From the sequence record MW630116.1: DNA of 64,000 nucleotides; one strand, given 5' to 3'. A model generated the notes under the pieces. That model was not told the DNA's origin. It worked only from the letters and a program-made list of their open reading frames with translations, and did not search any database. The DNA is from Escherichia phage vB_EcoM-ZQ3. Numbering within the stretch: the first letter of the stretch is position 1; every line of letters begins with the position of its first letter. The translations under genes were made by a program, and so were the position numbers. Below, in pieces: positions 3,523 to 32,089 of the stretch.

Positions 3523-4209
3523 ATGAAACTGTCTAAAGATACTATCGCTATTCTGAAAAACTTTGCCTCTATTAACTCCGGCATTCTGCTGAGTCAAGGT
3601 AAATTTATTATGACTCGTGCAGTTAATGGCACCACTTATGCGGAAGCAAATATCTCTGATGAAATTGATTTTGACGTAGCACTTTATGATTTGAATAGCT
3701 TCTTAAGCATTTTGAGTCTAGTGTCTGATGATGCCGAAATTTCAATGCACACCGATGGCAATATTAAAATTGCAGATACACGTTCCACGGTTTATTGGCC
3801 TGCCGCTGACAAGAGCACCATTGTTTTTCCTAATAAGCCAATTCAATTCCCAGTGGCTTCTGTGATTACTGAAATTAAAGCCGAAGACCTTCAACAATTG
3901 CTTCGAGTTTCACGTGGTCTTCAGATTGATACAATTGCTATTACAAATAAAGATGGTAAAATTGTTATCAATGGCTATAATAAAGTTGAAGATTCTGGAC
4001 TAACCCGTCCTAAGTATTCTTTGACTCTTACCGATTATGACGGTTCTAACAATTTTAACTTCGTAATCAATATGGCTAATATGAAAATCCAGCCAGGTAA
4101 CTATAAAGTAATGTTGTGGGGAGCTGGTGATAAAGTTGCAGCCAAGTTTGAAAGCCCTCAAGTAAGTTATGTTATTGCGATGGAAGCCGATTCTACTCAC
4201 GACTTCTAA
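3523..4209 (+). CDS. 45: sliding clamp gp45
   Basis: 228 aa from ATG 3523 (RBS aaaggaa); N-terminus MKLSKDT... matches recalled T4 gp45. Confidence 0.93.
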   Translation: MKLSKDTIAILKNFASINSGILLSQGKFIMTRAVNGTTYAEANISDEIDFDVALYDLNSFLSILSLVSDDAEISMHTDGNIKIADTRSTVYWPAADKSTIVFPNKPIQFPVASVITEIKAEDLQQLLRVSRGLQIDTIAITNKDGKIVINGYNKVEDSGLTRPKYSLTLTDYDGSNNFNFVINMANMKIQPGNYKVMLWGAGDKVAAKFESPQVSYVIAMEADSTHDF

Positions 4210-4212
4210 GTC

Positions 4213-4239
4213 AAAGCTTTACGTTTAATGTAGTACTAT
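4213..4239 (+). promoter_or_regulatory. putative MotA-dependent middle promoter upstream of gene 44, followed by a GGAGGA-gaaa-TCCTCC hairpin (4243-4258)
   Basis: aaaGCTTTA box, 12-nt gap, tactat -10. Confidence 0.4.
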
Positions 4240-4284
4240 TATGGAGGAGAAATCCTCCAGTTTAATGATAATGAGGAAAATTAC

Positions 4285-6264: not shown

Positions 6265-8976
6265 ATGAAAGAATTTTACTTAACGGTTGAACAGATTGGT
6301 GATTCAATTTTTGAACGTTACATCGATTCTAACGGCCGTGAACGTACTCGTGAAGTAGAATATAAACCATCACTGTTTGCTCATTGTCCAGAAAGTCAGG
6401 CTACGAAATATTTCGATATCTACGGTAAGCCGTGTACTCGTAAGTTGTTCGCCAATATGCGTGATGCCTCACAATGGATTAAACGCATGGAAGATATCGG
6501 ACTTGAAGCACTTGGCATGGACGATTTCAAATTGGCGTATTTGTCTGACACTTATAACTATGAAATCAAATACGACCATACAAAAATTCGTGTGGCTAAC
6601 TTCGACATCGAAGTAACATCTCCAGATGGGTTCCCTGAGCCGTCACAAGCAAAACATCCGATTGATGCTATCACCCATTATGACTCAATTGATGACAGGT
6701 TTTATGTATTTGACCTTTTGAATTCTCCATATGGTAATGTAGAAGAATGGTCTATTGAAATCGCTGCTAAGCTTCAAGAACAAGGCGGTGATGAAGTTCC
6801 ATCCGAAATTATCGACAAAATCATTTATATGCCGTTCGATAACGAAAAAGAATTGTTGATGGAATATCTCAACTTCTGGCAACAGAAAACTCCTGTCATT
6901 TTGACTGGATGGAACGTTGAGTCATTTGATATTCCATATGTGTATAACCGAATCAAGAATATTTTTGGCGAATCTACTGCGAAACGTTTATCACCACATC
7001 GCAAAACTCGTGTTAAAGTTATCGAAAACATGTATGGTTCTCGTGAAATCATTACATTGTTCGGTATCTCTGTTCTTGATTACATTGATCTTTACAAAAA
7101 ATTCTCTTTTACCAATCAACCGTCGTATTCTCTGGATTACATTTCAGAATTTGAATTGAACGTTGGTAAACTGAAATATGACGGCCCTATTTCTAAGCTT
7201 CGTGAAAGCAATCACCAACGATATATTTCTTATAACATTATCGACGTATATCGTGTATTGCAAATTGATGCTAAGCGTCAGTTCATCAACTTGAGTTTGG
7301 ACATGGGTTATTATGCTAAAATTCAGATTCAATCTGTGTTTAGCCCAATTAAAACATGGGATGCTATTATTTTTAATAGCCTTAAAGAGCAGAACAAGGT
7401 GATTCCACAAGGTCGTTCTCACCCGGTTCAACCTTATCCAGGCGCTTTTGTTAAGGAACCTATTCCAAATCGATACAAATATGTAATGAGTTTCGACCTT
7501 ACATCCCTGTATCCAAGTATTATTCGCCAAGTGAATATTAGCCCAGAAACAATAGCAGGAACGTTTAAAGTAGCTCCATTGCATGATTATATTAACGCTG
7601 TTGCTGAACGTCCTTCTGATGTGTACAGTTGTTCTCCTAACGGCATGATGTATTATAAAGACCGTGATGGTGTAGTTCCAACTGAAATCACTAAGGTCTT
7701 TAATCAACGTAAAGAACATAAAGGTTACATGCTTGCAGCTCAACGTAATGGTGAAATAATTAAAGAGGCATTGCATAATCCTAATCTTTCTGTTGACGAA
7801 CCATTAGATGTTGATTATCGTTTCGACTTCAGTGATGAGATTAAAGAAAAGATTAAAAAGTTGTCTGCTAAATCTCTTAATGAAATGTTGTTTAGAGCTC
7901 AACGTACTGAAGTTGCAGGTATGACTGCCCAAATTAACCGTAAATTGCTTATCAACTCACTTTATGGTGCACTTGGCAACGTTTGGTTCCGTTATTATGA
8001 TTTGCGTAATGCTACTGCAATCACAACATTTGGTCAAATGGCTTTACAGTGGATTGAACGTAAAGTTAATGAATATCTGAATGAAGTTTGTGGCACAGAA
8101 GGTGAAGCTTTCGTTCTTTATGGTGATACAGACTCTATTTACGTATCTGCTGATAAAATTATCGATAAGGTTGGTGAATCTAAATTCCGTGATACCAACC
8201 ATTGGGTAGACTTCTTAGATAAGTTTGCACGTGAACGTATGGAACCAGCTATTGATAGAGGTTTCCGTGAAATGTGTGAATACATGAACAATAAACAACA
8301 CTTAATGTTCATGGACCGAGAAGCTATCGCTGGGCCTCCACTCGGTTCTAAAGGTATTGGTGGATTCTGGACTGGTAAGAAACGTTATGCATTAAACGTG
8401 TGGGATATGGAAGGTACTCGTTACGCTGAGCCTAAACTCAAAATCATGGGTCTAGAGACTCAGAAATCTTCGACTCCTAAAGCAGTACAGAAAGCTCTTA
8501 AAGAATGTATTCGTCGTATGCTTCAAGAAGGTGAAGAATCATTACAAGAATATTTTAAAGAGTTTGAAAAAGAATTCCGTCAATTGAATTATATTAGCAT
8601 CGCGTCGGTATCTTCTGCGAATAACATTGCTAAATATGATGTAGGTGGATTCCCTGGTCCCAAATGCCCGTTCCATATTCGTGGAATTCTGACGTATAAC
8701 CGTGCTATCAAAGGTAATATCGATGCACCGCAAGTTGTAGAAGGTGAAAAAGTATATGTTCTGCCTTTACGTGAAGGAAACCCATTCGGTGATAAATGTA
8801 TCGCATGGCCTTCTGGTACTGAAATCACAGATTTAATTAAAGACGATGTACTTCACTGGATGGACTACACTGTTCTCCTTGAGAAGACATTTATTAAACC
8901 ACTTGAAGGATTCACATCAGCAGCGAAACTCGATTATGAGAAGAAAGCATCTCTGTTCGATATGTTCGATTTTTGA
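6265..8976 (+). CDS. 43: DNA polymerase gp43 (family B, with 3-prime to 5-prime exonuclease)
   Basis: 903 aa; exo motifs FDIE/YNIIDVY, pol motifs SLYPS, KILLNSLYG-like, YGDTDS; sequence matches my recollection of RB69 gp43. Confidence 0.97.
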   Translation: MKEFYLTVEQIGDSIFERYIDSNGRERTREVEYKPSLFAHCPESQATKYFDIYGKPCTRKLFANMRDASQWIKRMEDIGLEALGMDDFKLAYLSDTYNYEIKYDHTKIRVANFDIEVTSPDGFPEPSQAKHPIDAITHYDSIDDRFYVFDLLNSPYGNVEEWSIEIAAKLQEQGGDEVPSEIIDKIIYMPFDNEKELLMEYLNFWQQKTPVILTGWNVESFDIPYVYNRIKNIFGESTAKRLSPHRKTRVKVIENMYGSREIITLFGISVLDYIDLYKKFSFTNQPSYSLDYISEFELNVGKLKYDGPISKLRESNHQRYISYNIIDVYRVLQIDAKRQFINLSLDMGYYAKIQIQSVFSPIKTWDAIIFNSLKEQNKVIPQGRSHPVQPYPGAFVKEPIPNRYKYVMSFDLTSLYPSIIRQVNISPETIAGTFKVAPLHDYINAVAERPSDVYSCSPNGMMYYKDRDGVVPTEITKVFNQRKEHKGYMLAAQRNGEIIKEALHNPNLSVDEPLDVDYRFDFSDEIKEKIKKLSAKSLNEMLFRAQRTEVAGMTAQINRKLLINSLYGALGNVWFRYYDLRNATAITTFGQMALQWIERKVNEYLNEVCGTEGEAFVLYGDTDSIYVSADKIIDKVGESKFRDTNHWVDFLDKFARERMEPAIDRGFREMCEYMNNKQHLMFMDREAIAGPPLGSKGIGGFWTGKKRYALNVWDMEGTRYAEPKLKIMGLETQKSSTPKAVQKALKECIRRMLQEGEESLQEYFKEFEKEFRQLNYISIASVSSANNIAKYDVGGFPGPKCPFHIRGILTYNRAIKGNIDAPQVVEGEKVYVLPLREGNPFGDKCIAWPSGTEITDLIKDDVLHWMDYTVLLEKTFIKPLEGFTSAAKLDYEKKASLFDMFDF

Positions 8977-18655: not shown

Positions 18656-18716
18656 GGGTTTACATCTTCCTCTAGGCATGATATGATGTACTTACACCGA
18701 CCAAGAGGAGAACAAA

Positions 18717-26991: not shown

Positions 26992-27303
26992 ATGGTTTAT
27001 GTATATGCAATAGTTTATCGAGATATGGAAGGATTTACTGTCCCGGTTCCACTTGATGAGCATCGTCCTGCAGTATTTTTTAGAAAAGATATTGCAGATA
27101 AAGTTTTCGATACTTTGAAAACACAGTATAAAACAGATTTAAAAATGGGAGTTCTAAGAATGGTCGAAACTCCGCGTAAGTTCTGGTTTAATAAGCTTGA
27201 AATGAAACGCATTAAACTAGATGCGGAGACGCAAAAATTGTATCAACGAATCCTGGACACAGGCCGTATTGTTAGTATTCCAATTGCAGGGACTTTACGA
27301 TGA
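26992..27303 (+). CDS. hypothetical protein (dda.1 position)
   Basis: 103 aa; ATGA overlap with dda. Confidence 0.65.
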   Translation: MVYVYAIVYRDMEGFTVPVPLDEHRPAVFFRKDIADKVFDTLKTQYKTDLKMGVLRMVETPRKFWFNKLEMKRIKLDAETQKLYQRILDTGRIVSIPIAGTLR

Positions 27304-28613
27304 CATTTGATGATTTGACTGAAGGCCAGAAAAACGCCTTCAACGTTGTTATGAACGCTATTAAAGAAAAGAAACATCACGTAACTATTAATGGGCCTGC
27401 TGGTACAGGTAAAACAACCCTTACTAGATTCATCGTTGAAGCCCTTATTTCTTCTGGAGAATCAGGTATTATTTTAGCAGCCCCTACACACGCCGCTAAA
27501 AAGGTTCTAAGCAAACTTGCAGGTCAAGAAGCATCGACTATTCATAGCATTCTTAAAATCAACCCAACTACATACGAAGAAAACGTATTGTTTGAACAGA
27601 AAAAGGTTCCCGACTTAGCCTTGTGTCGTGTACTGTTATTTGATGAAGCGTCAATGTGCGACCGTTCTCTGTTTAAAATAATGTTAGCTAGTATCCCTAA
27701 ATGGTGCACAGTAATTGGAATCGGCGACCGATGTCAAATTCGACCGGTAGACCCAGGCGAATCAACTGCGTATCTAAGTCCTTTCTTCACTCACAAAGAC
27801 TTCGTGCAATGCAACCTTACAGAAGTTAAACGTAGTAATGCACCAATTATTGATGTTGCGACTGATATTCGTAATGGCAAATGGATTTACGATAAAGTAG
27901 TTGATGGACACGGTGTTCATGGATATACAGACCTTAAATCGTATATGATGAACTATTTTAACGTCGTTAAAACTCCTGAAGACCTTTTCGAAAATCGAAT
28001 GATGGCATTCACAAATAAGTCGGTGGACAAGTTAAATTCAATTATTCGCCGAAAACTTCTTGAAACAGAAAAACCATTTATTAAAGACGAAGTCATTGTT
28101 CTACAAGAGCCGTTTACTAAGACATATAAGCTAGATGGTAAAAATATGACCGAAATGCTTTTCAATAACGGCCAATTCGTTCGTATTCGAGATGCTGTAG
28201 AAACGTCTACATTCGTTAAAGCACATGGTGTTTCAGGCGAATATATGATACGATACTGGAATCTTACAGTAGAAACATATGGGGATGATGAAGAATACAT
28301 CCGCGAAGATATAAAGGTTATTTCTTCTGAAGAAGAGCTTTATAAATTCAATTTGTTTTTGGCTAAGACCGCAGAAACATACAAATTTTGGAATAAAGGT
28401 GGTAAAGCTCCATGGAGCGAATTCTGGGATGCTAAACGTATGTTCACTAAGGTGAAGGCACTACCAGTATCGACCTTCCATAAGGCCCAGGGTATGTCTG
28501 TTGACACGGCCTTTGTTTATACACCGTGTATCCATTACGCCGATTCAGAATTAGCTAAACAGTTATTGTATGTCGGCACAACTCGTGGTCGGTTTGACGT
28601 CCATTTTATTTGA
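27300..28613 (+). CDS. dda: SF1 DNA helicase Dda
   Basis: 437 aa; Walker A GPAGTGKTT; N-terminus matches recalled T4 Dda. Confidence 0.95.
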   Translation: MTFDDLTEGQKNAFNVVMNAIKEKKHHVTINGPAGTGKTTLTRFIVEALISSGESGIILAAPTHAAKKVLSKLAGQEASTIHSILKINPTTYEENVLFEQKKVPDLALCRVLLFDEASMCDRSLFKIMLASIPKWCTVIGIGDRCQIRPVDPGESTAYLSPFFTHKDFVQCNLTEVKRSNAPIIDVATDIRNGKWIYDKVVDGHGVHGYTDLKSYMMNYFNVVKTPEDLFENRMMAFTNKSVDKLNSIIRRKLLETEKPFIKDEVIVLQEPFTKTYKLDGKNMTEMLFNNGQFVRIRDAVETSTFVKAHGVSGEYMIRYWNLTVETYGDDEEYIREDIKVISSEEELYKFNLFLAKTAETYKFWNKGGKAPWSEFWDAKRMFTKVKALPVSTFHKAQGMSVDTAFVYTPCIHYADSELAKQLLYVGTTRGRFDVHFI

Positions 28614-28622
28614 GAGAAAATT

Positions 28623-29300
28623 ATGAGCACTGATGTTATTATAGATTTTGAAACATTCGGCAATACATCAAAAGCGGCTGTTATTGACCTTGCGGTTATT
28701 GCATATAATTCCGACCCTGAAGTTGTTGAATCATTTGAAGAACTTGTTCAACGAGGTAAGCGAATTAAATTTAATTTAGCTTCTCAGAAAGGGAAGCGAG
28801 TTTTCGCTAAATCCACTATGAAATGGTGGAAAGAACAATCGGCTGAAGCACGTAAAAACTTGGCTCCGTCTGAAGACGATGTCACTACGCTTGAAGGCAT
28901 TAAAATCTTTTTAGATTATTGCCGAGCTAATAAAGTTGACCAATGGAAATCACAGATGTGGTGCCGTGGTATGAGCTTTGACTTCCCGATATTGGTCGAT
29001 TTGATTCGTGACCTCTATCGTGATGAAGGTGTTCCTGAACCAGAGATTGATACTGATAAATTAGAACCGGTTAAATTCTGGGCTCAACGTGATATTCGTA
29101 CGGCAATCGAAGCTTACTCGTTGACACGAGGATTAAGTATGTGTCCATTACCGATGGGTACGCTAAAAGGATTCGTTGCCCATGATAGTATTCATGATTG
29201 TGCTAAAGATATTTTGATGTTAAAATATGCTCAGCGTTATGCGCTTGGCCTTGAAGATGTCCCTGAGAATCCTGACCCGTTAAGTGTAAAACAGCGATAA
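28623..29300 (+). CDS. dexA: exonuclease A (DEDD family)
   Basis: 225 aa; DFETFG exonuclease motif; position after dda. Confidence 0.85.
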   Translation: MSTDVIIDFETFGNTSKAAVIDLAVIAYNSDPEVVESFEELVQRGKRIKFNLASQKGKRVFAKSTMKWWKEQSAEARKNLAPSEDDVTTLEGIKIFLDYCRANKVDQWKSQMWCRGMSFDFPILVDLIRDLYRDEGVPEPEIDTDKLEPVKFWAQRDIRTAIEAYSLTRGLSMCPLPMGTLKGFVAHDSIHDCAKDILMLKYAQRYALGLEDVPENPDPLSVKQR

Positions 29301-29305
29301 AATCA

Positions 29306-29335
29306 GTTTACAACCAAGGATGGTTGGAGTATAAT
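29306..29335 (+). promoter_or_regulatory. T4-type early promoter
   Basis: GTTTAC, 18-nt spacer, TATAAT. Confidence 0.5.
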
Positions 29336-29366
29336 CTTTCTATCTTAACCAAACAGGAAAAACATT

Positions 29367-29861
29367 ATGAATATCAATACTATGGCTACTTACATCCTGA
29401 AAGACGAAAAACAAATCAACTGGTACGGTGCTTCAGTGCGAGCTTATGAAAAGTTTTGTGAAATTTTAGGTGCCACTCAAGGTAATAGTTTCACTATTGT
29501 TAACTTCATCAAACAAGTTGAAGGCCCTTGGTTATTCTTAGAAATTAAAAATTCATATGGTACAATTTCTACTACCGCCCTTCCAAGCACCGACTTTGAA
29601 CTGTTGATTGAAGAAGCACCTGTTAAAGATGGTCTCCACTTTGATATGGATATCGCTTGTATGTACGGTACTCTGATTAAGCCTATTGAGCCTACTGATT
29701 TGTTGTGTAAAGCTGTTTCAATTCGACGACCATTCGCTGGACCGGTAAGTGGCTGGGTAACTGACCAGTGGATTGAAGATGGGGTTGAACTTCTGAACGT
29801 TGTTCATGCCGGTGATTTTAGTGTGGTTCCACGTAGTGCAGTAGTTAATATTCTAAATTAA
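29367..29861 (+). CDS. early protein, paralog family member 1
   Basis: C-terminus SGWVTDQWIEDGVELLNVVHAGDFSVVP shared with the next two ORFs. Confidence 0.75.
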   Translation: MNINTMATYILKDEKQINWYGASVRAYEKFCEILGATQGNSFTIVNFIKQVEGPWLFLEIKNSYGTISTTALPSTDFELLIEEAPVKDGLHFDMDIACMYGTLIKPIEPTDLLCKAVSIRRPFAGPVSGWVTDQWIEDGVELLNVVHAGDFSVVPRSAVVNILN

Positions 29862-29864
29862 TGT

Positions 29865-29893
29865 TTTACATCCAAGGATGGATGGAGTATAAT
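29865..29893 (+). promoter_or_regulatory. T4-type early promoter (near-duplicate of 29306-29335)
   Basis: TTTTAC, 17-nt spacer, TATAAT; spacer ccaaggatggatggag nearly identical to the upstream copy. Confidence 0.5.
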
Positions 29894-29922
29894 GAATTCA
29901 ATTTAACAAAGAGAGAAAAATT

Positions 29923-30378
29923 ATGATTACTATTGGTGAAATTAAGCGTGTATCAACTGCATCCCGGTCTAAAGCCACAGGTCGTCTGGTTGAAGTGGTA
30001 GGACTTCGCACAAATGGCATGGGACGCATTAAAGAAGTTAAAGTTCGAATCATTCCTAGTTTTGGACGTCAGGATACTCAGCACGCTTACGTAAGTCCTA
30101 AATTCTTGGAAACTCCTGTGAGCGCTCATTTTGCTTCTACTGAACCTAATGCACAGTTCAAATGGGCCTTGTGTAAAGGTGTTGAATTCCAGACTGATAA
30201 AGAATTTGACTTCATCGATGAATACGGTTATCCAAGCAAAACTGATACTATGTGTGGCTTCATTAGTGACCAATGGGTTGAAGATGGTGAAAAGTTATAC
30301 AATATCGTATTCTTAGGTGACTTCCGAGTTGTTAAAGAATCTGAAATCACTCGTTATGTGTCTCCTCGTAAAGCTTAA
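29923..30378 (+). CDS. early protein, paralog family member 2
   Basis: ASRSK..G.LVEV, FKW.L and FISDQWVEDG.KLYNIVF motifs shared with member 3. Confidence 0.75.
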   Translation: MITIGEIKRVSTASRSKATGRLVEVVGLRTNGMGRIKEVKVRIIPSFGRQDTQHAYVSPKFLETPVSAHFASTEPNAQFKWALCKGVEFQTDKEFDFIDEYGYPSKTDTMCGFISDQWVEDGEKLYNIVFLGDFRVVKESEITRYVSPRKA

Positions 30379-30387
30379 GGAATTATT

Positions 30388-30807
30388 ATGAATATTGTAA
30401 ATCTCTCTACAGGTGATTACGTATATGTATCTGTTGCTTCTCGCTCTAAAGTTGCCGGGAAGTTGGTTGAAGTTCTTTCTGTGAGTGATCCGGTTTTTGG
30501 TCGTAACCAAGTTAAAGTTCGTGACGCCGATGGTAACATTGGTTACGTTAAAAGCCAGTTCATCGAGCCAGAAGAACGCGCGTTCAAATGGAAACTGGGC
30601 AGATCAGTTTTAGTTGTAAAAGACTACGAGTTCACCATTGCCGCTGCGACAGATGGAACACCGTGGACAACGAATCAAGTTGCTGGTTTTATTTCGGACC
30701 AATGGGTAGAAGATGGTGTTAAGCTTTATAACATTGTTTTCGCTGGGCAGTTCATGGTAGTTCCTGAGTTCCAAATCAAAAAATATTGTCCAGCATCTTT
30801 TGCATAA
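30388..30807 (+). CDS. early protein, paralog family member 3
   Basis: same motifs as member 2. Confidence 0.75.
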   Translation: MNIVNLSTGDYVYVSVASRSKVAGKLVEVLSVSDPVFGRNQVKVRDADGNIGYVKSQFIEPEERAFKWKLGRSVLVVKDYEFTIAAATDGTPWTTNQVAGFISDQWVEDGVKLYNIVFAGQFMVVPEFQIKKYCPASFA

Positions 30808-30811
30808 AGTT

Positions 30812-30840
30812 GTTTACTTCTCCTCCGGTTTTGATATTAT
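30812..30840 (+). promoter_or_regulatory. T4-type early promoter
   Basis: GTTTAC, 17-nt spacer, TATTAT. Confidence 0.45.
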
Positions 30841-30866
30841 AACCATATCAACCAGAGGAGAATAAT

Positions 30867-31391
30867 ATGTTAGTTTACCGCGTAGAACGTAGTTTTTGTA
30901 CTCAACGTGAATCATTACCAGGAATTGCTATCGAAGATGGTAAAGCCGTCAGAATTTGGGAAACCTCTTGGAATAAAGAACCTCGTTCGCCGTATGGTTG
31001 GTCGGGCACCGACAACTCTGAAGAAACATGGGAGTTCCTTGATAAGCATGGAATACTCTCAGGTAACTTCTACCATCACGGCGACAACTATAATGTCCCT
31101 AATCGTCCTACAGTAAATGAAGACAAACTCCTTGAACAAAATATCTTAAGATACTATAGAATTGAGCACACATTTGAATTGAGTGAAGATTGGGCCCAAG
31201 GGTTCTATTTTGGATTTGAAAGTGTTGACGCGGTTTATGCATGGTTTGATGACCAGGTGGATGTTGAACTCTTGAAAGCTAAAGGATACTACATCGCGGT
31301 CTATGAAGCACCTGATTTCATCCTCGGAAGTTGTCAATTAATGTTTAGACGTTCATTGGCAGAACAAGTTGATTTTATTTTGCTAAAATGA
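30867..31391 (+). CDS. hypothetical protein
   Basis: 174 aa with RBS gaggag. Confidence 0.65.
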   Translation: MLVYRVERSFCTQRESLPGIAIEDGKAVRIWETSWNKEPRSPYGWSGTDNSEETWEFLDKHGILSGNFYHHGDNYNVPNRPTVNEDKLLEQNILRYYRIEHTFELSEDWAQGFYFGFESVDAVYAWFDDQVDVELLKAKGYYIAVYEAPDFILGSCQLMFRRSLAEQVDFILLK

Positions 31392-31392
31392 T

Positions 31393-31422
31393 GTACAACA
31401 ACTATGGTCTATGATACTATAG
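31393..31422 (+). promoter_or_regulatory. T4-type early promoter
   Basis: TGTACA then gatactatagacctatcaaaac leader. Confidence 0.4.
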
Positions 31423-31448
31423 ACCTATCAAAACAAGAGGAGAATATT

Positions 31449-31676
31449 ATGAAACGTCAAATCATTAAAAACGTAACTACTGATTCAAACATCGATGAGT
31501 TTGAAGATGTTCTGTTTAATCCTGATTTAGTTGTTGTACAGAAAAACTGGACCGAATTTTTATGCTACACTGAAGTGGTTTACGTTTACGAAAAACTCGG
31601 CGATGAAATGCCTATCTATGGTATCTTCCGTGAAATCACTGAAAACGGTACAACTTATTGGAAGGAAACTTACTAA
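31449..31676 (+). CDS. hypothetical small protein
   Basis: 75 aa from ATG 31449 after RBS gaggag. Confidence 0.55.
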
Positions 31677-32089
31677 TGGCTAATAAATTCCGCGTTAACT
31701 CATGGTACCAATTTATAGATAAACGTGCCCAAGAAGAGTTTATTAAAGACCACACTGATAATGGGATTTATGCACGACGTCTTGGCATGGAACCATTTAA
31801 AGTATTAGATGTTGACCATCTTGGTCGTCCTACTAAAATTGTGACATCTACTGGCACGGTTGGATACGCAACAGGTGGTGATATCCTTGATGAAAACTTT
31901 ATCTGGCTCTCCACGAATGAAGCAGAGTTCTTTGACGAAGTTGAAAATCCATATCAAGCGTCCGAAGAGCAAGATTCTGGTGAACTTGAAGAATTGTCTG
32001 AATTTCCGGTGATGACGATTACTATCGAAAATAACGACCAGGCATGGTCTTTGTATCAAATGTTGAAAGCTCACTTTAAGGAACAATAA
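31676..32089 (+). CDS. hypothetical acidic protein
   Basis: TAATG overlap; 137 aa. Confidence 0.6.

Follow-up and report, generated by a model that had tools for sequence, protein, structure and literature searches.

The motB.1/motB/motB-like cluster of Escherichia phage vB_EcoM-ZQ3: divergent paralogs and near-identical predicted early promoters flanking motB.1

Three consecutive early genes of Escherichia phage vB_EcoM-ZQ3 (MW630116.1) are best explained, with a probability that we place near 85%, as the motB.1/motB/motB-like cluster of Mosigvirus, in which two early promoters would account for expression, recombination between these promoters for the loss or gain of motB.1, and an old origin for the divergence of the paralogs. 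The window, a 64,000-nt stretch of the phage DNA, is assigned by its sequence to a Mosigvirus of the RB69/JS09 type, that is, a T-even, T4-like phage. All genes considered here lie on the + strand. ORF1 (29367-29861, 164 aa; phrog_2333) is a full-length motB.1, ORF2 (29923-30378, 151 aa; PF17613) is the motB ortholog and ORF3 (30388-30807, 139 aa; PF17613) is a second motB-like paralog. They are preceded by the genes for the dda helicase (27300-28613, 437 aa) and the dexA exonuclease (28623-29300, 225 aa) and followed by ORF4, which is motB.2 (30867-31391, 174 aa; phrog_1106), cef (ending at 31676) and goF (ending at 32089). The order dda, dexA, motB cluster, motB.2, cef, goF agrees with that of T4 and RB69, and the cluster occupies a dispensable, variable early block extending from dexA to motB.2-cef-goF. 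The initial annotation had associated these genes with host takeover or anti-defence, and the setting agrees with the former: they lie in the early host-takeover region, and T4 MotB is a published host-takeover protein (PMC6070864, PMC7827196).

The 2.8-kb stretch from dexA to motB.2 shows 99% DNA identity to vB_EcoM_SQ17 and 95-99% to a large number of further JS09/RB69-type Mosigvirus genomes; matches covering at least 80% of its length occur in 147 records. The three proteins are identical to those on record for vB_EcoM-ZQ3. The three-gene arrangement recurs in many Mosigvirus records, the trio being fixed across many genomes of this genus, and annotation as MotB or MotB-like is already present in Mosigvirus genomes at 99% DNA identity.

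The three proteins are related through their C-terminal ends. Each carries a C-terminal small beta-barrel of about 50-70 residues with a DQW(V/I)EDG core, and the motif common to the end of all three reads G(W/F)(V/I)(T/S)DQW(V/I)EDG..L.N(I/V)V..G.F.VV. In BLASTP comparisons, ORF2 and ORF3 can be aligned along their entire length (42% identity, E 1e-28), and only the last 30-36 or so residues of ORF1 align with ORF2 and ORF3 (E 3e-10 and 1e-11). With hhalign, comparison of the profiles of both families recovered 51 columns, corresponding to the entire C-terminal domain, at a probability of 98.5% (E 1.9e-15). All three ORFs exceed the gathering score of Pfam family PF17613 (25 bits): ORF2 and ORF3 match the full model with 123 and 81.9 bits (E 1.4e-35 and 6e-23), and ORF1 scores 36.9 bits (E 4e-9) through residues 88-159 only, which cover the C-terminal half of the model (positions 82-153). 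By these measures the common C-terminal block is real homology, and the locus holds three true paralogs, as against the four "transcriptional regulators" of many records. The initial annotation had described this block in all three proteins; its motif as written fits ORF2 and ORF3, ORF1 having a diverged version (TDQWIEDGVELLNVVHAGDFSVV). It had also noted N-terminal motifs shared by ORF2 and ORF3, in agreement with their full-length alignment and with the common VS.ASRSK..G.LVEV motif.

The family is small. An exhaustive HMM search with the C-terminal domain yielded 26 clusters (at 50% identity) among 1.84 billion proteins, in a library that carries no names and with clusters counted irrespective of source organism. 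In 25 matches of 101-251 aa, the match ends about 8 residues or less from the C-terminus (14 in one protein); the 26th cluster is a 43-aa fragment. No other or longer domain architecture containing the C-terminal domain occurs among the 26 clusters, all of which are 43-251 aa long. Sequence search returned no solved structure for the MotB family (best E-value 0.63).

ORF1 matches phrog_2333, the T4 MotB.1 family, over its full length (E 4.9e-81), which identifies it as a MotB.1 protein. Its AF2 model (mean pLDDT 78) comprises an N-terminal domain of a helix plus strands, a low-confidence linker (residues 86-106, pLDDT below 50) that carries the conserved motif DMDIACMYGTLIKP, and the C-terminal barrel. 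Since the N-terminal domain is unrelated to that of MotB, ORF1 is no whole-gene copy; it has the makeup of a domain chimera, with an unrelated N-terminal domain joined to the shared C-terminal one, as would result from domain shuffling and not from amplification. In the other two proteins we found the KOW/SH3-like N-terminal domain with (V)S..SRSKA.G.LVE that marks the MotB family. ORF2, 91% identical to RB69 MotB and 47% to T4 MotB, has a basic KOW-like N-terminal domain followed by the C-terminal barrel. In ORF3 the linker is shortened and the N-terminal domain nearly neutral; the AF2 model of this protein consists of two small beta-barrels (mean pLDDT 83). The C-terminal barrel has five strands in both AF2 models (ORF1 and ORF3).

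Several observations bear on the age of the paralogs. Their amino-acid identity is 42-47%, and the DNA of the three genes is only 56-67% identical in the best-conserved block of 84 nt. The identity of ORF3 to most MotB orthologs, ORF2 and T4 MotB among them, is about 40-48%, and that to the divergent ortholog P0098 is 38%. A neighbor-joining distance tree, built without support values, places the ORF3 clade as the sister group of the whole set of MotB orthologs, which come from several genera; a fast-evolving local duplicate could also branch outside the MotB orthologs in such a tree. Searches with ORF3 gave 207 records at 80% identity or more, none between 60% and 80%, and 570 other records below 60%; among those listed, the high-identity records are Mosigvirus-type phages. 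The number of family copies is one in the T4-like phages of Klebsiella, Edwardsiella and Enterobacter, two in Tequatrovirus and Dhakavirus, three in Mosigvirus, and two in those Mosigvirus phages that lack motB.1. Relatives thus differ in whether they have one distinct gene, not in how many identical units they carry. In the family alignment, N-terminal domains vary by lineage and the C-terminal domain is constant, a combination that argues for an old duplication plus domain shuffling. Altogether, these comparisons indicate that the paralogs probably arose in this way within the T-even phages, and not by recent amplification.

All promoters described here are predicted from consensus matches. 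P1 (29307-29335, + strand), an early sigma-70-type promoter located 5' of motB.1, consists of TTTACA (29307-29312), a 17-nt spacer and TATAAT (29330-29335); P2 (29865-29893, + strand), of the same type and with the same TTTACA-17-TATAAT arrangement, lies 5' of motB. Each matches the consensus at 11 of 12 positions, and the pattern had no match in 100 shuffles of the window. P1 and P2 agree at 27 of 29 positions overall and at 15 of 17 within the spacer, the remaining pairs of early-type promoters in the window having 3-12 spacer positions in common. The similarity (75% identity) extends over 56 nt and reaches from the -35 element as far as the ribosome-binding site (repeat family D2). The segment of P1 from -35 to -10 is constant in most of the related loci examined, with one spacer substitution in JS09; P2 has a degenerate -35 (TTGTAC) or -10 (TATAGT) in many relatives and conforms to the consensus in the window. 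Alignment of the upstream regions therefore upholds the near-identity of two promoters that the initial annotation had reported. Its statement that each of the three genes has a promoter of its own does not hold for ORF3, upstream of which no sigma-70-type, MotA-box middle or TATAAATA late motif was found on the + strand. Because only 9 nt separate the ORF2 stop from the ORF3 start, ORF3 is most likely co-transcribed with ORF2. As predicted strong early promoters, P1 would drive motB.1, and P2 would drive motB and motB-like as a two-gene unit. An Rfam search of the region gave two matches below the gathering score, to Y_RNA (26.6 versus 38 bits) and to the S15 leader (17.1 versus 39.5 bits); both fall inside coding sequence and were rejected as chance matches.

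P1 and P2 form direct repeats, 558 bp apart, that flank motB.1. At least 12 phages lacking motB.1 (PTE-Eco05, AV114, AV115, AV116, AV118, JM17, JK42, JK45, PNJ-9, NHEP36, S143_2 and ST2) align across the dexA-motB junction in a single piece, and annotation confirms the absence of the gene in six of the twelve. The promoter at this junction is a chimera: it corresponds to P1 on the dexA side (-35 and spacer) and continues with the P2 leader as far as the start of motB. The crossover in JK42 is placed within the spacer, between its two points of difference; in the other phages lacking motB.1 it falls downstream from the second difference, in the interval from spacer position 12 to the end of the -10. 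Two different crossover positions imply at least two independent events. The comparison suggests that homologous recombination between P1 and P2 would remove or insert the motB.1 cassette, leaving one chimeric promoter; in principle, the genomes without motB.1 could represent the ancestral state, with insertion in place of deletion. The identity between the promoters (93%) is far above that of the coding sequences, a difference more in keeping with recombination or gene conversion between promoter cassettes than with co-duplication.

A related arrangement is found downstream. P3, identified in the promoter scan, and the motB.2 5' leader span positions 30813-30866 (+ strand), outside the 29301-30807 region. 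The P3 spacer segment CTCCTCCGG (30820-30828) pairs with the Shine-Dalgarno region CCAGAGGAG (30852-30860). The read-through RNA at P3 has a predicted fold of -19.2 kcal/mol (z -4.55), as compared to -1.8 kcal/mol for the RNA started at P3, and the arms of the stem co-vary in other lineages. The P3 and cef leaders have a 20-nt repeat in common, with 90% identity. PNJ-9 lacks motB.2 in addition to motB.1; its junction falls within a promoter whose beginning resembles P3 and whose end resembles the cef promoter. ORF4 itself is a homolog of T4 motB.2 (phrog_1106) located in the same variable dexA-cef block. Its candidacy as a fourth MotB paralog was rejected, as hhalign against the MotB profile returned a probability of 0.16%.

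Other explanations were considered for both the genes and the promoters. That the shared C-terminal block reflects chance similarity or low-complexity sequence can be given practically no weight. The one point on its side is that BLASTP aligns no more than some 30-36 residues of ORF1; against it stand pairwise E values of 3e-10 to 1e-28, the hhalign result, concordant Pfam and PHROG cross-matches, and conservation of the block across 26 divergent clusters. The protein alignment that the initial annotation had proposed as a check was thus carried out, and it excludes the possibility that the shared blocks are not significant. Recent tandem amplification of one gene under selection, in the manner of an anti-defence "accordion", with subsequent divergence, is also very unlikely. 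It would be in keeping with three adjacent genes on the same strand that have a domain in common, with the near-identical promoters of two of them, and with the fact that T-even early regions do hold host-takeover genes. However, copies that are only 42-47% identical, and 56-67% in the best-conserved DNA block, do not qualify as a recent "genomic accordion"; the ORF1 N-terminal domain is unrelated, the ORF3 clade branches outside all MotB orthologs (in the tree without support values), the same trio is found again in many Mosigvirus records, extra near-identical copies were seen in no genome, and no anti-defence function is known for the MotB family. The divergence largely refutes this explanation. 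The initial annotation had spoken of local gene amplification with divergence: true paralogs, and duplication with divergence, remain from this proposal, but the copies are old and one of them, ORF1, is a domain chimera. The comparison of copy number across phages that it had recommended gave one to three copies depending on the lineage, so that copy number does vary but with no expansion of identical units.

As for the promoters, the near-identity of the P1 and P2 spacers might reflect a shared regulatory site, such as an operator or a structured dyad (AACCA-agga-TGGTT / ATCCA-agga-TGGAT), and not recombination or descent. Both spacer differences fall at paired positions of a 5-bp inverted repeat and the dyad is kept in both copies; in addition, GGAG lies directly 5' of the -10 in P1 and P2, and the other early-promoter spacers in the window differ. 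We nevertheless consider a shared site unlikely. Conservation of the dyad is not strict: JK42 combines the two forms (AACCA...TGGAT), and one base of the right arm is altered in RB69 P2. RNA from the P1 and P2 regions is predicted to fold no better than shuffled sequences; the -35 or the -10 of P2 has decayed in many relatives while the spacer remained unchanged, a pattern that fits inheritance rather than selection for a site; and no candidate binding protein is known. The spacer dyad was rejected as a conserved functional element, as compensatory change fails in JK42 and RB69 and the fold is not significant. Recombination between promoter cassettes remains our preferred reading of the P1/P2 repeat.

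The charge of the domains differs among the paralogs. The calculated pI is 11.3 for the N-terminal domain of ORF2 and 9.9 for that of T4 MotB, 6.2 for the N-terminal domain of ORF3, 4.65 for the whole ORF1 protein, and 4.7-6.3 for the shared C-terminal domain. This pattern fits DNA binding of the T4 MotB type for ORF2 but not for ORF1 or ORF3; with an acidic ORF1 and a non-basic N-terminal domain in ORF3, these two proteins may not bind DNA in the manner of T4 MotB. Since the C-terminal barrel is acidic to neutral and the MotB N-terminal domain basic, the barrel is possibly not the DNA-binding part, and the asymmetry suggests which domain to use in tests of DNA binding and of partner binding. 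We tentatively envisage, as an idea that is more doubtful than probable, that the barrel might be a protein-protein module, directed at a host target of the H-NS/StpA type or engaged in mixed oligomers of paralogs, to which swappable N-terminal effectors are attached, the promoter repeats serving as recombination sites for the exchange of cassettes. The effectors could include KOW-like, LSm-like and at least two other types. If this were true, a Mosigvirus would use one targeting module in three versions, each with a different effector.

As a discovery, the trio carries little weight: the observation is real but ordinary, and the genes have been described before. It was already known that MotB and MotB.1 share the C-terminal domain and that their homologs fall into four categories with differing N-terminal domains (Patterson-West et al. 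2021, PMC7827196); RB69 was reported in the same work to have two motB copies, one motB.1 and a 29-aa peptide. The MotB/MotB.1 paralogy, with the extra copy of RB69, is therefore published for the same phage group, and the genes are annotated in hundreds of genomes. The promoter repeat flanking motB.1 and the chimeric junctions go beyond these reports (PMC6070864, PMC7827196). Phages naturally lacking motB.1 or motB.2 and carrying chimeric promoters offer ready-made, isogenic-like comparisons, and those with chimeric promoters illustrate clearly how true T-even phages lose cassettes through their promoters.

Cassette shuffling through promoter-early stem-loops (PeSL) is known in T4-like phages (Arbiol et al. 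2010, PMC2839356; Comeau et al. 2014, PMC4122927), where the early promoter consensus of the T4 group is TTTACW-N17-TAYWAT (PMC2839356, PMC4122927). P1 and P2 fit this consensus and flank a dispensable gene in a variable region; relatives gain or lose motB.1 with the junction inside the promoter. From its sequence features, then, the loss or gain of motB.1 is an instance of the known promoter-mediated, PeSL-type shuffling. P1 and P2 are not textbook PeSLs, however, as neither forms the stable stem-loop that in a PeSL serves as terminator or attenuator (z -0.02 and -1.05 relative to shuffles); only the neighboring P3 has a stable stem-loop. The assignment made here is based on genome comparison.

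T4 MotB is toxic to E. coli and binds DNA with no sequence specificity; H-NS and StpA co-purify with it, and it raises the burst size twofold (Patterson-West et al. 2018, PMC6070864); it alters the H-NS footprint, and its overexpression raises the levels of 75 host genes (PMC7827196). ORF2 and ORF3 resemble it in having the KOW-like N-terminal domain with SRSKA.G and the C-terminal barrel with DQWVEDG.KLYNIVF, and in occupying the same dexA-cef slot, T4 motB being likewise classed as early. They differ from it in sequence (about 44-47% identity, the biochemistry being that of the T4 protein alone) and in length, ORF2 (151 aa) and ORF3 (139 aa) being shorter than T4 MotB (162 aa) because of deletions in the inter-domain linker. 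Furthermore, the window has a tandem pair where T4 has a single motB, and the N-terminal domain of ORF3 is not basic. By analogy we infer for ORF2 the function of a T4 MotB-like, H-NS-altering DNA-binding protein; from this homology it would be expected to be an abundant early protein that targets the nucleoid, binds DNA without sequence specificity and interferes with H-NS.

According to Kim et al. (2025, PMC12152347), the N-terminal domain of T4 MotB.1 is LSm-like and the gene, whose function is unknown, can be dispensed with. ORF1, a full-length homolog, has the N-terminal domain described as LSm-like for T4 and a C-terminal domain of the MotB.1 type; the T4 gene is early. In the T4 reference, MotB.1 is 119 aa long and ends inside the DQWI motif through one extra G, whereas the 164-aa ORF1 has a complete C-terminal domain; ORF1 also differs from T4 MotB.1 by a 20-residue insert that contains DMDIACMYGTLIKP. 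Here motB.1 directly follows dexA and has its own promoter; in T4 it follows motB.2 and has none. RB69 (RB69p013, RB69p012, RB69p011, RB69p010) belongs to the same genus and has the same gene order and three paralogs. Its P2 has a weaker -35 (TTGTAC) and a -10 of TATAAA where the window P2 is consensus, and in the RB69 record two 1-nt insertions split its motB.1 into ORFs of 132 and 29 aa, unlike the intact motB.1 of the window. In conclusion, the Mosigvirus motB.1 has its full length, in contrast to the truncated forms of this gene in the reference records of T4 and RB69, and work on "MotB.1" has so far used the 119-aa T4 form.

The MotB.1 protein of the T4 reference is 119 aa long, its stop lying inside the DQWI motif. 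This early end is due to one extra G, at about 1805-1806 of the T4 locus (NC_000866, approximately 7304-7305), where T4 reads tggattGgaagat versus tggattgaagat in the window; the corresponding segment of the window spans 29770-29861. In the shifted frame, the T4 sequence reads on as ...EDGVELLNVVHAGEYSVVPRSAVVAILN, followed by a stop, as far as the motB promoter. Intact alleles of 143-145 aa are widespread, one of them being present on 256 contigs, and in T4_ev151, an evolved isolate of T4, the protein is 144 aa long. The extra G is not mentioned in two papers on MotB.1; it could have arisen as a true mutation of the laboratory strain, or the old sequence could be wrong at this point. Compared with the window, RB69 motB.1 (RB69 locus, 1482-1978) contains two additional single nucleotides, which break it into one ORF of 132 aa and another of 29 aa. 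The shorter of these, RB69p012, was placed in "category 3" (PMC7827196); this peptide is the C-terminal remnant of motB.1.

The low-confidence linker in the structural model of the intact window protein contains the motif DMDIACMYGTLIKP (residues 92-105; window 29640-29681). The motif is also found N-terminally in other MotB.1-type proteins (e.g., MITDMDVACMYGTLIKP...) and the Tequatrovirus protein of 143 aa lacks it. It resembles a short linear motif that can change position.

In many gene calls in the databases, MotB is 165-186 aa long (e.g., proteins P0001, P0003 and P0009; positions 3762-4280 of the related locus L002). These long versions begin at or just past the motB.1 stop and then cross P2, the predicted early promoter of motB. 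The true start is likely that of the 151-aa protein, located behind a ribosome-binding site. The window has an ATG further upstream, at 29861, but it is not in frame with motB.

At P3, the predicted promoter of motB.2 (30813-30866 with the leader), the spacer CTCCTCCGG is complementary to the Shine-Dalgarno region CCAGAGGAG of the gene. In computed folds, RNA reading through from upstream of P3 forms a structure of -19.2 kcal/mol (z -4.55) in which the motB.2 ribosome-binding site is predicted to be masked, while RNA initiated at P3 is without structure. The hairpin arms co-vary in other lineages (CTCCTCATG/CATGAGGAG and CTCCTCTGG/CCAGAGGAG), and the predicted promoter at 18659 of the window has the same layout.

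The motB.2 and cef leaders share a 20-nt repeat with 90% identity (30850-30869 and 31432-31451). Phage PNJ-9 lacks motB.2, and its junction falls within a promoter (positions 2575-2640 of the related locus L031). Thus, motB.2 is a second cassette, edged by promoter and leader repeats. In the 31392-31451 interval, the first codon of the longest possible cef ORF is at 31404, within a predicted promoter (31392-31420; TGTACA-17-TACTAT) whose -10 element is in the loop of a hairpin, GGTCTAT-n-ATAGACC. Translation of cef probably begins instead at the ATG at 31449, which is preceded by GAGGAG and is also the start annotated in JS09.

Three further early-type promoters on the + strand (19975, 40033 and 40546) have an inverted repeat bracketing the -10 element, as in GTAGGA...TATAGT...TCCTAC. 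These repeats probably represent the stem-loop part of PeSL (promoter-early stem-loop) elements; the -10 element is likewise bracketed by an inverted repeat in motB promoters of the T4 and Dhakavirus types.
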